64,000 nucleotides of DNA, from assembly GCA_034439575.1 (NCBI GenBank), contig JAWXAQ010000033.1:64001-128000 (forward strand), read 5' to 3'. Below are positions 59,860 to 64,000 of the stretch, one piece after another. Position numbers and translations under genes: made by a program. The DNA comes from Leptospira sp. (lineage in GTDB: Bacteria; Spirochaetota; Leptospiria; Leptospirales; Leptospiraceae). The notes under the pieces were generated by a model. The model was not told the origin of the DNA, did no database searches, and worked only from the letters and a program-made list of their open reading frames with translations. Within the stretch, counting starts at the first letter, position 1. Every line of letters starts with the position of its first letter.

Positions 59860-62343
59860 TTATTCGTAATTGAGACTCTCACGAAGACTAATCTTTGCGG
59901 CCTTTAAAAAAGGATAAAAACTCACGATTGTAGCAAGGATTGGCACGAACAGAAGGAAGTATCCAATTTGCTCATATGGATAATGAAAATCTAAAATCCA
60001 TCCAAAGGCATTTCTATTAATCCCATATATAACAATGGGCGAAAGAACTAAGCTATTTCCTACTCCAAGTAATAGCCCAATCAGAATCAAAAATAGACTT
60101 TGAAAAAATAATATCTTATAAAGTTGATATTTACTTAAACCAATGGCACGAAGTGTTGCGATGAGTTTCGATTTTTCTCGAATATTATAAATCAATGATG
60201 TGAGTAGTGCTAATAATGAAATGGCAATGGCACAAATTTTCAATGAGTCTAAAACGGAAAATACAGAATTCATTCCTTCCAAATATAAATCTTTGAGAGC
60301 GTTCTCGTCCAAAATTTTTAACTCTTTAAAATCCTTCTTCAAAATAGAATTTAAAATTATAGACCAATTTTCTTTTGGTATCATGGGATTAAATTTTAAT
60401 CGAATTGAATTCAAATCGGAATGAGAAAAATATTTTTGAAAAACATGATAGCTCATCATAATTGTGCCTCGTTCTGAAAAAAAATGTTCTTTCTCTCCTT
60501 TGATGGAAAAATCCATTTTTCCAAATTTTTCTGTTAATATTTGAAGAGTATCACCTTTGCATTTTTTTTCCAAATAACAATAATTTGACGATACATAAAT
60601 TTCTTTATCATTTGATTCAAATGGATAAACATTTAATGTAAAATAATTTTTATCTATTAGGAACTTAGATTGGATAATAAAAGGTTCTATCTTTTCTAGT
60701 TCATTTCGTTTGGTTAATTCCAATAACAATTGATTCGGCACTCCAGGTAGACCTGAAGATAATTTGTTTGGGTTAATAATAGAATAATCGAATTGACTCT
60801 CTTCGTTTACCCATTTGATAAGAGAATATTTATAGCTTTCAGTTAATGTCGTTAAGGTGATAACTAATGATGAAGATAAAAGAATAGTAGCCGCCGTTAA
60901 TGTATTTTGAATTGGTTCTTTTTGAATTTCTTCCCATGCAATTTTAAAAGTTGGAAAAAAGAAATAACGATCAAAAACTCGTAAGGAAAATCTTACTGTA
61001 GATACCAAAAAATAAGGAAAAATAAGTATAAAACCCAATAATACAAAACCCACACCCGTGAGCCCAGGGATCAAAGATTTTGGTGAAGGGATAAAACCGA
61101 TACCAATTCCGATCAAAGTTAACACAATTCCAAATATTGCAAAATGGAAAAACGAATATGAGTAAAATTTAATATTTGTTTCTTCTAATTCTTTTTCTCT
61201 TACTAAATCTATTGGTTTGATAAAGTAAGATTTTAATGAAGATGTAAGAGCAGAAAAAAGGGAACCAAATATGCCAATGGAAATAGAAAAAAAATAAATT
61301 TGAATGGGTATCTTAGTATAAGTAGAAATTTGTTCGGAATCAGTTAGAGTATTGTTTCCATTAAAAATATTTAACTGTAGTAATGCATATCCAATGACAA
61401 TACCAAGAAGACTTCCCAAAAAACCAAGCAGTAGTGACTGAGATAAAAATAAAAAAAGATTTTGTAATCTATCATTTCCGATACACGATAAGATTCCAAA
61501 TTCTTTTCTTCTCGAAAGATAAATTCCCGAAAAAGTATTCGCAACCATAAAGAAAGAAATCAAAACAGAAACAAGAGAAACAATAGTCAAATTTATTTTT
61601 AAGGAACCTAGAGCTTTTCCGGATCGTTCACGTATATCTTCGATTGATTCCCATTCCCAGCCAAAATCTTTGCCAAGGTTTGTCATATTGTCTTGCATTA
61701 TTGTTGTAAATTGTTCATTCGAAATGTTTTGTATTAATATTTTTTGGATCTGATCCTTTGAATCACATAATCCTTGTAAAATTTGAATATCTGTTAAAAT
61801 AAATTTACCATCACGTTGAATTTTTATTGAATCTTCTTTGAATATGTTTACTTCTTTTTCGCATAGATTGATTTTAACAGATGAATTGAATTTGAATATT
61901 TGATCGAAAAGGGCATTGGTTATAAAATAAGTTGGGACTTTTTTTTTGGTCTTTCCTGATTGAGTATGATTGGTCGTATTTAATAATAAAATATCCTTAC
62001 CTATCAGCGGAAAATGGATTAGAGATAGTTCTGAGTTATTGATAAATGCTTCTTTGGTAAGTATAACATCGATTATAAAGTTCTCTGGAATTAAAAAATA
62101 TAGCTTTTTTAAAATACTAGAATCTCTGGATTCGTTCCCATTCTGGAGAACAAATTGACCTATATAATCATTGTTTGGGTAACCTAATTGAGCATCAATA
62201 AGACTCTCTTCCGCTCTCCATGCATTTGTTTGGGTGGTAAAAAAAAGCGAAATCCCAAAGGCGATGCCCATAAGCGAAAGAAATAATCTCGATTTGTGTT
62301 CTTTGGCATATTTCCATATAAAAAGAAAATAAATGTCTATCAT
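59860..62343 (-). CDS. FtsX/MacB-like ABC permease (duplicated)
   Basis: Two repeats of the TM-periplasmic-TM unit with RRKEFGILSCIG and REKSKLIATLRAIG. Confidence 0.88.
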   Translation of the reverse strand: MIDIYFLFIWKYAKEHKSRLFLSLMGIAFGISLFFTTQTNAWRAEESLIDAQLGYPNNDYIGQFVLQNGNESRDSSILKKLYFLIPENFIIDVILTKEAFINNSELSLIHFPLIGKDILLLNTTNHTQSGKTKKKVPTYFITNALFDQIFKFNSSVKINLCEKEVNIFKEDSIKIQRDGKFILTDIQILQGLCDSKDQIQKILIQNISNEQFTTIMQDNMTNLGKDFGWEWESIEDIRERSGKALGSLKINLTIVSLVSVLISFFMVANTFSGIYLSRRKEFGILSCIGNDRLQNLFLFLSQSLLLGFLGSLLGIVIGYALLQLNIFNGNNTLTDSEQISTYTKIPIQIYFFSISIGIFGSLFSALTSSLKSYFIKPIDLVREKELEETNIKFYSYSFFHFAIFGIVLTLIGIGIGFIPSPKSLIPGLTGVGFVLLGFILIFPYFLVSTVRFSLRVFDRYFFFPTFKIAWEEIQKEPIQNTLTAATILLSSSLVITLTTLTESYKYSLIKWVNEESQFDYSIINPNKLSSGLPGVPNQLLLELTKRNELEKIEPFIIQSKFLIDKNYFTLNVYPFESNDKEIYVSSNYCYLEKKCKGDTLQILTEKFGKMDFSIKGEKEHFFSERGTIMMSYHVFQKYFSHSDLNSIRLKFNPMIPKENWSIILNSILKKDFKELKILDENALKDLYLEGMNSVFSVLDSLKICAIAISLLALLTSLIYNIREKSKLIATLRAIGLSKYQLYKILFFQSLFLILIGLLLGVGNSLVLSPIVIYGINRNAFGWILDFHYPYEQIGYFLLFVPILATIVSFYPFLKAAKISLRESLNYE

Positions 62344-63026
62344 AATTTACTTATATTGCCATCTAACATTGCTAATTGTATGTCACCCATTCTACCAATC
62401 TCAGGATTATGCGTTACCAAAAATACAGTGACTCCAAGTTCCTTAACACAATGTTGAAATAATTGCATAACAATATCAGAAGATACTGAATCTAAATTAC
62501 CTGTTGGTTCATCTGCTAAAATTAATTTTGGTTTGTGTACAAGTGCACGAGCAATAGCCACTCTTTGTTTTTCCCCTCCAGATAACTCCTTTGGAGAAAA
62601 AGTCATTCTATTTTCCATTTTGACAAGTTTAAGTGCTTCCACACCTAATTTTTCGGCATCGCGTCGCTTAACACTATTTAAATACAAAGGAATTATGGTA
62701 TTTTCAAGCGCATTCAAATATGGAAGCAGGTGAAAAAACTGAAATACAATTCCTATTGTATTTCGCCTATATAAAGTTAAATCTTTTTCGTTTTTCTGCG
62801 TTAAATTTTCACCAAATATTTCGATCCTTCCCGTATCAGCTGGTTCAATTGCAGATAAGATATTCAAGAATGTTGATTTTCCACTTCCCGATGGACCCAT
62901 CATAGTAATAAGATGACCTGAAGGGATTTCTAAATTGATCCCTTTTAAAATCGGTATACGTAGTTCTCCTTGGAAATAGGTTTTCGTAAGATTTGAGATT
63001 TTAATTTCTGAATTTTTGTTCTTCAT
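62340..63026 (-). CDS. ABC transporter ATP-binding protein (LolD/MacB-like)
   Basis: GPSGSGKST, LSGGEKQRVAIARAL, LADEPTGNLD and VTH. Confidence 0.95.
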   Translation of the reverse strand: MKNKNSEIKISNLTKTYFQGELRIPILKGINLEIPSGHLITMMGPSGSGKSTFLNILSAIEPADTGRIEIFGENLTQKNEKDLTLYRRNTIGIVFQFFHLLPYLNALENTIIPLYLNSVKRRDAEKLGVEALKLVKMENRMTFSPKELSGGEKQRVAIARALVHKPKLILADEPTGNLDSVSSDIVMQLFQHCVKELGVTVFLVTHNPEIGRMGDIQLAMLDGNISKL

Positions 63027-63049
63027 TTAATTTTAAAATAATTTTAAAA

Positions 63050-63385
63050 ATGCTTTTCAAAACGGAAAATACTTATTTAATTGAATTGGTAGAAAAATTG
63101 GTATTTCGTTTAATCATAATTATAGCGGTTGTACTTTTTTTTGCAGGTAAGTCCAATTTCCCTTCATTCGCAAGTATTGAACCTGGCGAAAGTGAAGTTC
63201 CAGAACTGACCGAATCAAAACCCACACCGAAAGAAGAGTCGAAGTCTGACTTTTTCACCATCATTCCCATTCATTATTCTTATTGTTCCTTTCTTATTAG
63301 TCGATCTTCTGCTGTTAATCGTTCATCTGTTTCTTTCGAAACTTTTTCTTCTCTAACCAATCGCGGGCCCCCGCACAGAACCTAA
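63050..63385 (+). CDS. Putative membrane-targeted leader peptide with C-terminal RGPP arrest-like motif
   Basis: Hydrophobic stretch RLIIIIAVVLFFAG, polar linker, end ...LTNRGPPHRT*; the start may be TTG 63086 or 63098. Confidence 0.65.
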   Translation: MLFKTENTYLIELVEKLVFRLIIIIAVVLFFAGKSNFPSFASIEPGESEVPELTESKPTPKEESKSDFFTIIPIHYSYCSFLISRSSAVNRSSVSFETFSSLTNRGPPHRT

Positions 63386-63420
63386 ACCTTTAAACTTTTT
63401 CTAAATTCTGCAAGGTAGGT

Positions 63421-64000
63421 ATGGTTATGAACCGTAAGTACTCTATATTGAGTTCTATTTTGGTCGGTGCAAGTGCACTGATTCCATTTTTGTATTTTAT
63501 TATTTATGTAAATGATCCATTGGGTGAAAATTTTCCCATATTTCTTGGGCTCAGTTTGCAAGTATATATTGGTTTTTCTGCATTTATGCTTGTACTGTCC
63601 TATGAGACTATTCATGCAAACCGTGTATCTTTAGGTTATGCGATCTTTTGGTCTTCGTTAGGTGTTTGTTATTTGGCGGGCAAATCAGTTTTGTTACCTG
63701 TTGCTCTTGAGATCGCATCCTTTTCTACGATCATTATTTATTCAGGAACAGAATTTGGTAAAAAGCAAATCGAGAGTTTAGGGGCTCTATTATTGGCTTC
63801 TGGGATTTCTGCGCTTTTTCTTTCTGCATGGGTCTTTTTGCCGGAATCCGATCCTAGAGGACTTATATTTTTAACTATTGGATTAATGGTTAAATCAGGA
63901 TTTTCCGGATTTCATATCTGGTTACCTAAAGTCAATGAAGGTGGGCCATCACACGCCTTGGGTTCGTTTGCTGGTGCTCTCGAAATATTCCCACTTTTAT
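63421..64000 (+). CDS. 5' part of a proton-conducting membrane subunit (HyfB/NuoL/MrpD-like), truncated by the window end
   Basis: Open frame from ATG 63421 to the edge, read by hand (not in the ORF track); multi-TM; LEIAS and GLMVKSGFSGFHIWLPKVNEGGPSH match the antiporter-like K.G..P.H.WLP motif; SD AAGGTAGGT. Confidence 0.85.
   Translation, partial: MVMNRKYSILSSILVGASALIPFLYFIIYVNDPLGENFPIFLGLSLQVYIGFSAFMLVLSYETIHANRVSLGYAIFWSSLGVCYLAGKSVLLPVALEIASFSTIIIYSGTEFGKKQIESLGALLLASGISALFLSAWVFLPESDPRGLIFLTIGLMVKSGFSGFHIWLPKVNEGGPSHALGSFAGALEIFPLL

Follow-up and report, generated by a model that had tools for sequence, protein, structure and literature searches.

Structure of the leader locus

The DNA examined here, referred to as the window, is the 64,000-nucleotide stretch at positions 64,001-128,000 of Leptospira sp. 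contig JAWXAQ010000033.1. Close to its 3′ end lies a small open reading frame (ORF), here called the leader, which precedes the first gene of an operon resembling those for energy-converting hydrogenase-related (Ehr) complexes and which probably encodes a regulatory translation-arrest peptide. The leader ORF occupies 63050..63385 on the plus strand and specifies 111 amino acids when counted from the ATG at 63050; the stop codon is the TAA at 63383-63385. Residue numbers refer to this 111-residue version unless stated otherwise.

The N-terminal part contains a hydrophobic segment, L21-G33 (63110..63148, +), flanked by Arg20 and Lys34 and predicted by hydropathy to be a signal peptide or signal anchor. 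The best 17-residue window of this segment has a mean Kyte-Doolittle (KD) value of 2.89, and its C-terminal end lies 73 residues before the proline predicted to occupy the ribosomal P-site, Pro107. It is followed by an acidic stretch, E44-D67 (63179..63250, +), located 40-63 residues before Pro107 and with a net charge of -5 in the best 15-residue window, and by a moderately hydrophobic, fast-evolving segment, F68-S84 (63251..63301, +; mean KD 1.31). Near the C-terminus is the arrest-type motif R105-G106-P107-P108, encoded by CGC GGG CCC CCG (63362..63373, +) within the terminal sequence N-R-G-P-P-H-R-T-stop; the three-codon tail H-R-T and the TAA stop occupy 63374..63385 (+). An A/U-rich spacer of 35 nt (63386..63420, +), with the Shine-Dalgarno (SD)-like sequence AAGGTAGG at 63412-63419, separates the leader from the ATG at 63421 of the next gene. 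The 5′ part of this gene fills the remainder of the window (63421..64000, +) and the gene continues past it; the full 576-residue product is a hyfB-like, antiporter-type subunit (PF00361, E 1e-18 on the full protein). The initial annotation had described a small ORF with a hydrophobic N-terminal segment, N-R-G-P-P three codons before the stop in these same codons, and an antiporter-like membrane gene 35 nt downstream, all of which was confirmed. The linker that it called polar does contain the acidic stretch E44-D67, but it also holds the moderately hydrophobic F68-S84.

Translation of the leader may begin elsewhere than at the ATG at 63050. Relatives and gene callers mostly begin the leader at the codon matching TTG 63098, which gives 95 amino acids, and leaders in the genus are mostly 94-100 amino acids long with a TTG start and an AAGGT box 8 nt upstream. 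Because the relatives start at the homologous TTG, TTG 63098 is the likely true start in this genome. The ATG at 63050 lies inside an element, AAAA(A/G)TGCTTT(T/C)CA (63046-63062), that is found upstream of the leader in this genome (G000) and in G026, G033 and G029. The reading frame through this element is not conserved, and a promoter or operator function is conceivable.

The terminal motif is scarce in this genome of 35.7% GC. Among 12,564 six-frame ORFs of at least 50 amino acids (1.90 million residues), RGPP and RAPP each occurred three times, and of these the leader motif alone lay 15 residues or fewer from the end of an ORF, making a chance occurrence improbable. The leader matched 0 Pfam families at E values up to 1 and was without a DUF2946 match, and a protein search by word index with the leader returned its own sequence as the sole match.

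Conservation of the leader in the genus

When the leader peptide was searched in six frames, only the closest species matched, and the hyfB-like gene was therefore used as the anchor for comparison. In a sample of the phylum this gene (E <= 1e-40) was found in all 33 genomes of the family and in 0 of the 217 genomes of other families searched. Within the family it was located in 111 of 114 genomes, and the upstream DNA was read in 109 (40 of the genus and 69 of other genera), G031, G046, G059, G101 and G103 being the five family genomes outside this survey.

An ORF of the same size, ending 29-41 nt before hyfB, was present in 35 of the 40 genus genomes. The motif at the end of these leaders is RGPP in 23, RGSP in nine and RAPP in three, such that 26 of the 35 carry RGPP or RAPP, and it is followed by three residues in 25 of the 35 (range, 2-8). 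A 17-residue hydrophobic window with a mean KD of 1.95-2.89 is present in all 35. Named relatives with the hyfB-like gene were saprophytic Leptospira (L. ognonensis, L. idonii, L. yanagawae, L. jelokensis, L. vanthielii, L. abararensis and L. sp. 'Mane'), and nine of the ten returned loci of these genes have the leader.

Outside the motif the peptide diverges. In an alignment of 28 of the 35 leaders, seven near-identical ones having been omitted, mean column identity was 40% and the only invariant columns were E36, R89 (the motif arginine) and P92 (the last proline; 95-residue numbering). M1, R4, K18 and a second Glu were at least 90% conserved, and no conserved Cys or His column was found in these 28 sequences. 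A profile built from the alignment gave 15 matches at E <= 0.001 in 1.84 billion proteins, and 15 of the 15 end in R[GA][PS]P. Synteny across Leptospira had been proposed in the initial annotation as a check on its arrest-leader interpretation, and the expected pattern of a retained transmembrane (TM) segment and motif with a diverging linker was indeed observed. Of the outcomes that it listed as refuting this reading, none of those open to computation was found.

The five genus genomes without the leader are G009, G018, G019, G027 and G032. The first four also have no GAGG ribosome-binding site, and the DNA upstream of hyfB in them could not be convincingly aligned to leaders; the region appears to have diverged or decayed, and no specific remnant is claimed. 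In these four, TTTTGGTCAAC precedes the hyfB-like start in place of the GAGGT box of the other 35, indicating that loss of the leader was accompanied by a change in initiation signals.

Selection on the leader peptide and variants of its motif

The codons of the motif vary across species, with six Arg, four Gly and all four Pro codons in use. In 16 close species, which are kin, pN/pS (nonsynonymous over synonymous change, as uncorrected proportions) was 0.18 in the TM segment, 0.23 in the acidic part, 0.48 in the variable middle and 0.27 in the motif and tail. The leader is exactly 94 codons long in 24 of the 35 genus genomes. Synonymous codon change, pN/pS values below 1 and constant length together indicate that selection acts on the peptide and not on the RNA. 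The leader ORF is real and under protein-level selection.

These data bear directly on the explanation that the leader is an ORF present by chance within a 5′ untranslated region, its GC-rich motif serving as a DNA or RNA element. The weak or uncertain start codon would be in keeping with such an ORF, as would the promoter and terminator scan, which found no sigma-70-like promoter on the plus strand upstream of the leader. However, the frame, the length and the amino acids of the motif are kept while the codons change. Rfam gave only one sub-threshold match, on the other strand inside a neighboring ABC gene, and none for the leader region, and no conserved RNA structure was detected. Codon variation and the pN/pS values effectively refute the chance ORF, which we regard as scarcely credible.

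The RGSP leaders fall into three groups and require three changes on the best HyfB tree, which includes 30 of the 40 genus genomes; a single RGSP origin is compatible with the well-supported branches of this tree. G035, which lies outside the tree, also has RGSP. The variant has been retained through speciation, in clades of four and three species. In ApdP, nearly all substitutions of the corresponding proline, glycine excepted, abolish arrest (PMC12992588), and RASP is found in natural relatives of SecM (PMC10987492). By analogy, the stall in the RGSP species may be weakened or lost, or a SecM-like R-x-S-P may still function in the context of the leader.

Leaders of a second class in other genera

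A different leader was found at the same position in other genera of the family. In 20 of the 69 other-genus genomes the hyfB-like gene is preceded by an ORF of 100-127 amino acids that ends in (I/L)PPP plus 2-5 residues, and PPP is the sole invariant feature in 19 aligned leaders of this class. They span nine of the 12 other genera, being present in every genome examined of g2 (1/1), g3 (2/2), g5 (2/2), g6 (1/1), g7 (4/4), g8 (1/1) and g9 (1/1), in 7/8 of g14 and 1/22 of g13, and in none of g4 (0/4), g10 (0/1) and g12 (0/22); the leader of G043 is interrupted at its N-terminus. LPPP is a published stalling motif: in leaders upstream of secA in Planctomycetota the third motif codon is in the P-site at the stall (Fujiwara et al. 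2024, PMC10987492), and LPPP stalling is species-dependent and partly sensitive to elongation factor P (EF-P; PMC10987492). EF-P is encoded in this genome. Finding another published stalling motif at this position in other genera adds support to the arrest-leader reading, and taken together the sequence comparisons support this interpretation as first proposed.

The two classes have the same layout. In both, the TM segment ends 72-80 residues (median 73) before the P-site proline, an acidic cluster with a net charge of -4 to -7 per 15 residues is centered 48-59 residues (median 49) before it, and a weakly hydrophobic segment is centered ~29 residues before it. Motif and geometry are conserved while the remaining peptide diverges, and the leader is tied to the operon across the family.

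Conservation of this kind was weighed against the explanation that the ORF encodes a small protein of ordinary function, exported or in the membrane, in which R-G-P-P is structural or binding and causes no regulatory stall; such a protein might be an accessory subunit, help in assembly or be an N-terminal piece split off from the antiporter-like subunit. Purifying selection on the TM and acidic parts and the fixed length are compatible with such a protein, as is the survival of RGSP variants through speciation. In addition, the hyfB-like protein aligns ~60-69 residues later than the NuoL/M/N and HyfB models and may lack N-terminal helices. Nevertheless, everything diverges except R..P and a few charges, the candidate second helix being the least conserved part; a different, also stalling, motif stands at the same spot in other genera; no Pfam family matched at E values up to 1; and RGPP is reported to be avoided in normal proteins (PMC12992588). 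The operon is also found without the leader, in 43 of 44 genomes of the two large genera g12 and g13 and in five of the 40 genus genomes, and there hyfB starts at the same residue and encodes 574-595 amino acids. Persistence of the operon without the leader fits a regulator better than a subunit. We therefore consider an ordinary protein quite unlikely. The specific candidate of a split HyfB N-terminus was rejected on the missing Pfam match and on the shared start residue of the leaderless orthologues.

In g12 and g13 the hyfB-like start directly adjoins a large gene (-8 to +3 nt) that ends in ...FFFQVNAAL/F (upstream regions L083-L130); in the one example taken, G079, its C-terminal part matches PF13372 (Alginate_exp, E 2e-12). 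In g14 the (I/L)PPP leader and the hyfB-like gene are ~90-240 nt apart (L135, L139, L140, L142), and between them at least one genome, G109, has another small ORF with a GGAGG box of its own.

Leader-like ORFs ending in LPPP were also observed elsewhere in the genome of this study. At C12:121078-121404 (+), an ORF of 108 amino acids has an N-terminal hydrophobic segment, an acidic cluster and the end S-L-P-P-P-S-L-V, and stops 67 nt before the gene of a 1085-residue RND pump (PF00873, E 7.5e-244); from its sequence it is a candidate LPPP-type arrest leader of the efflux pump. At C8:165590-166607 (-), tandem ORFs of 126 and 124 amino acids with hydrophobic N-termini and the ends S-L-P-P-P-V and N-L-P-P-P-N-L-T lie upstream of an efflux operon encoding an outer-membrane factor, an HlyD_D23 protein, a 250-residue protein and an RND protein (PF00873).

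The downstream operon

The operon that follows the leader comprises six genes. Behind the hyfB-like gene are those of a NuoH/hyfC-like protein (299 aa, PF00146), a hyfE-like protein (203 aa, NF008556, far below the cut-off), a hyfF-like protein (405 aa, PF00361), a NuoD-like protein (479 aa, PF00346) and a ferredoxin plus NuoB-like (NuoI-NuoB-like) fusion (271 aa, Fer4 families and PF01058). All NCBIfam scores of the operon proteins, including the HyfB, NuoN and NuoM matches of the hyfB-like protein, are far below the equivalog cut-offs. The NuoD-like protein has four Cys and no CxxC. We take the Ehr type to be a Hyf/Nuo-like set in which the NuoD or large-subunit homologue is without the NiFe-binding CxxC pairs, and the operon fits this type, that is, a hydrogenase-related complex, similar to hydrogenase-4 and complex I, without a NiFe site.

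Proposed model of arrest and release

For a long time, the arrest peptides known were, to our knowledge, all monitors of the secretion machinery. In 2021, Sakiyama et al. reportedly worked on regulatory arrest peptides of the RAPP/RGPP type (PMC7897499). In later work RAPP and RGPP are described as versatile arrest cores that operate in varied contexts, RGPP being the strongest and refractory to EF-P (Fujiwara et al. 2025, PMC12992588). In RAPP-type stalls the third motif codon is in the P-site and the fourth in the A-site, and the arginine is irreplaceable. The motifs are depleted from proteomes and enriched near the C-termini of small secretory or membrane proteins upstream of diverse genes. 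Arrest was demonstrated for seven Streptomyces lividans RAPP/RGPP upstream-ORF (uORF) products and for CruR, and such leaders were proposed to control many non-secretion gene classes, a handful of which were tested (PMC12992588).

The leader has RGPP within 15 residues of the C-terminus of a protein of fewer than 300 residues, an N-terminal hydrophobic segment and a close downstream gene in the same orientation, with the motif conserved and the remainder divergent, which are sequence features of the class in Fujiwara et al. (2025). Judged by these computable criteria, it is a regulatory arrest peptide of the RAPP/RGPP class.

The best explanation of the data, and in our judgment the probable one, is that the leader is a translation-arrest peptide of the RAPP/RGPP type that is released by export of its acidic segment and tunes expression of the Ehr-type operon. 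The N-terminal hydrophobic segment, targeted to Sec, would take the nascent chain to the membrane. With R105-G106-P107 in place and the Pro108 codon in the A-site, peptide-bond formation would then stall four codons before the stop, the P-site holding CCC 63368-63370 and the A-site CCG 63371-63373; both the stall and its register are predicted from the published work on RAPP/RGPP and LPPP peptides. At the stall the first hydrophobic segment would be ~73 residues from the catalytic center, and thus already inserted, while the acidic cluster, ~40-63 residues away, would be at the depth of the translocon or membrane. In force-profile work, pulling by a TM segment starts and ends ~45 residues from the catalytic center (PMC7886326). 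The position of the acidic cluster at this pulling point, with the second hydrophobic stretch nearer the ribosome, suggests from the architecture of the leader that export of the acidic segment would pull the chain and end the stall, possibly in a manner dependent on membrane potential. The dwell time of the ribosome at the end of the leader would in turn set the output of the downstream hyfB-like operon.

A more specific form of this model is that the leader gauges the membrane potential (ion-motive force), with a de-energized membrane prolonging the stall and synthesis of the Ehr complex being adjusted in response. With 4-7 net negative charges placed in the translocon at the stall, electrophoretic export would depend on membrane potential, and the geometry common to the RGPP and (I/L)PPP classes would represent a physical ruler of ~45-50 residues from the catalytic center to the membrane. 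The membrane potential is reported to pull acidic residues hard enough to release SecM arrest (review PMC6028853, on Ismail 2015). We put the gauge forward tentatively, as a possibility on the doubtful side.

The same acidic cluster could serve a different purpose. The leader might sense a periplasmic condition such as pH, a cation or a metal, or might stall constitutively and hold the polycistronic mRNA at the membrane during insertion of four polytopic subunits; we judge this pair of explanations unlikely. The conserved cluster could bind cations or titrate with pH, and CruR responds to copper via its RAPP motif (PMC12992588). This genome also has three LPPP leaders with a comparable layout in front of RND efflux operons, which would suit condition sensing or tethering, as a pure energy monitor would not obviously govern efflux operons, and the absence of a switch hiding the ribosome-binding site leaves room for tethering. 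Conversely, a metal sensor is disfavored by the lack of conserved Cys or His and of a match to DUF2946 or any other Pfam family, no result obtained here identified a ligand, and mRNA tethering by a bacterial arrest peptide is our own extrapolation.

Several results weigh against arrest and export-driven release. Nine of the 35 genus leaders carry RGSP, although ApdP is intolerant of most replacements of that proline, and many relatives retain the operon but have no leader. Because genomes within a genus share ancestry, the counts overstate how independent the cases are. The start codon of the leader in this genome is uncertain, most relatives beginning at TTG, and the TM and signal assignments come from hydropathy. 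No homology between the two leader classes, RGPP and PPP, was detected by hhalign (probability 11%, confined to the TM segment), and a common origin of the two, which had been considered, is therefore unsupported.

Folding analyses of the leader-hyfB junction were also unfavorable. RNAalifold found no consensus structure in the 35 genus intergenic regions, and a simulated stalled-ribosome footprint raised predicted SD accessibility by >0.1 in only five of the 35. The best leader:SD duplexes had a mean z of +0.12 relative to dinucleotide shuffles, with one of 35 below -2. The fold of this genome pairs 63380-63390 with 63412-63420, at z values of -0.8 and +0.13, no better than shuffles. Two short metagenome contigs, probably derived from DNA, span the end of the leader and the beginning of hyfB and carry no information on transcription.

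An SD-sequestering hairpin opened by the stalled ribosome, tested in five ways, was thus unsupported and was rejected. The proposal that the Pro codons (CCUCC) act as an anti-SD was rejected as well, CCTCC being present in 14 of 20 PPP leaders, about the number expected if CCT makes up ~45% of Pro codons (an assumed figure).

Genes surrounding the leader and operon

Upstream of the leader and divergent from it are the gene of an ABC ATPase (62340-63026, -; PF00005) and an 827-residue permease-like ORF. Directly 3′ of the Ehr-type operon is a gene with a response-regulator receiver and an adenylate/guanylate cyclase domain (L002:7609-8844, +; PF00211, E 9e-28), on which an HDOD-domain gene (L002:8847-9689, -) converges just outside the window. 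A terminator-like hairpin of nine pairs followed by CCATTTTTGT is located at 63462-63492 (+), inside the hyfB-like gene and within 25 codons of its start; shuffles would give 0.4 such hairpins, against the one found.

Comparison with known arrest peptides

Literature searches for arrest peptides in Leptospira or in association with hydrogenase found no relevant paper, in agreement with the statement in the initial annotation that no such regulation had been described in spirochaetes. The main text of PMC12992588 contains 0 occurrences of Leptospira, hydrogenase or NADH, a count made on the main text with the figures and supplements outside it.

If the proposed mechanism is correct, control by arrest peptides would extend to a complex-I-like energy-converting complex of unknown function, and to spirochaetes. 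Should the acidic segment read membrane potential, the leader would be a simple example of translation sensing the energization of the cell, and the gauge would amount to direct translational feedback from membrane energization to a respiratory-type complex. The leader could also help to establish under which circumstances the enigmatic Ehr complex is required, and RGPP, RAPP, RGSP, (I/L)PPP and leaderless loci form a natural variant series in culturable, non-pathogenic Leptospira.

The leader resembles SecM-secA, VemP-secDF2 and MifM-yidC2 in its N-terminal targeting segment, its predicted near-C-terminal stall and, as proposed here, its release by pulling. VemP in effect reports the ion-motive-force-dependent activity of SecDF (PMC11470409; PMC6028853). 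Unlike those of SecM, VemP and MifM, its downstream genes (hyfB-, NuoH-, hyfE-, hyfF-, NuoD- and NuoI-NuoB-like) do not encode protein-localization machinery. In the mRNAs of these monitors, a stem-loop hides the ribosome-binding site of the next gene and is opened by the stalled ribosome, whereas a site-hiding stem-loop was sought at the leader-hyfB junction and none was found. Because the leader differs from the monitors both in its target genes and in the RNA switch, it is not a strict Sec/YidC monitor.

CruR of Bordetella pertussis and CutF of Rhodobacter capsulatus, DUF2946 leaders that sense copper, are likewise exported and combine a C-terminal RAPP or proline-rich stall motif with a non-Sec target. 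In contrast to these, the leader is without DUF2946 and without a conserved Cys/His site, its sensor region is acidic and not thiol-rich, and its target is different. It is not a DUF2946 metal sensor.

Like the uA_LPPP peptides upstream of secA in Planctomycetota, the leaders of the sister genera and the three LPPP leaders of this genome have a signal sequence and carry x-(I/L)-P-P-P among their final 15 residues. The Leptospiraceae targets, however, are Ehr-type and RND efflux operons and not secA, and the sequences are unrelated.

The closest likeness is to the RAPP/RGPP peptides ApdA, ApdP, ApcA and the S. lividans uORF products, which are likewise small proteins with an N-terminal localization signal, R-(A/G)-P-P a few residues before the stop, a close same-strand downstream gene and conservation limited to the motif. 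The target genes of that class comprise sec genes and those for TonB receptors, YcnI, PCuAC, PepSY, DsbA/thioredoxin and extracytoplasmic-function (ECF) sigma factors, and an Ehr class is not named in the main text (PMC12992588). The leader differs from these peptides in its phylum, Spirochaetota, in its Ehr-type target, in its natural RGSP variants and in having sister genera with (I/L)PPP, and its arrest is a prediction. New here are the Ehr-type target, the phylum, the swap of two stalling motif classes at one conserved position and the acidic cluster held at a constant distance from the motif.

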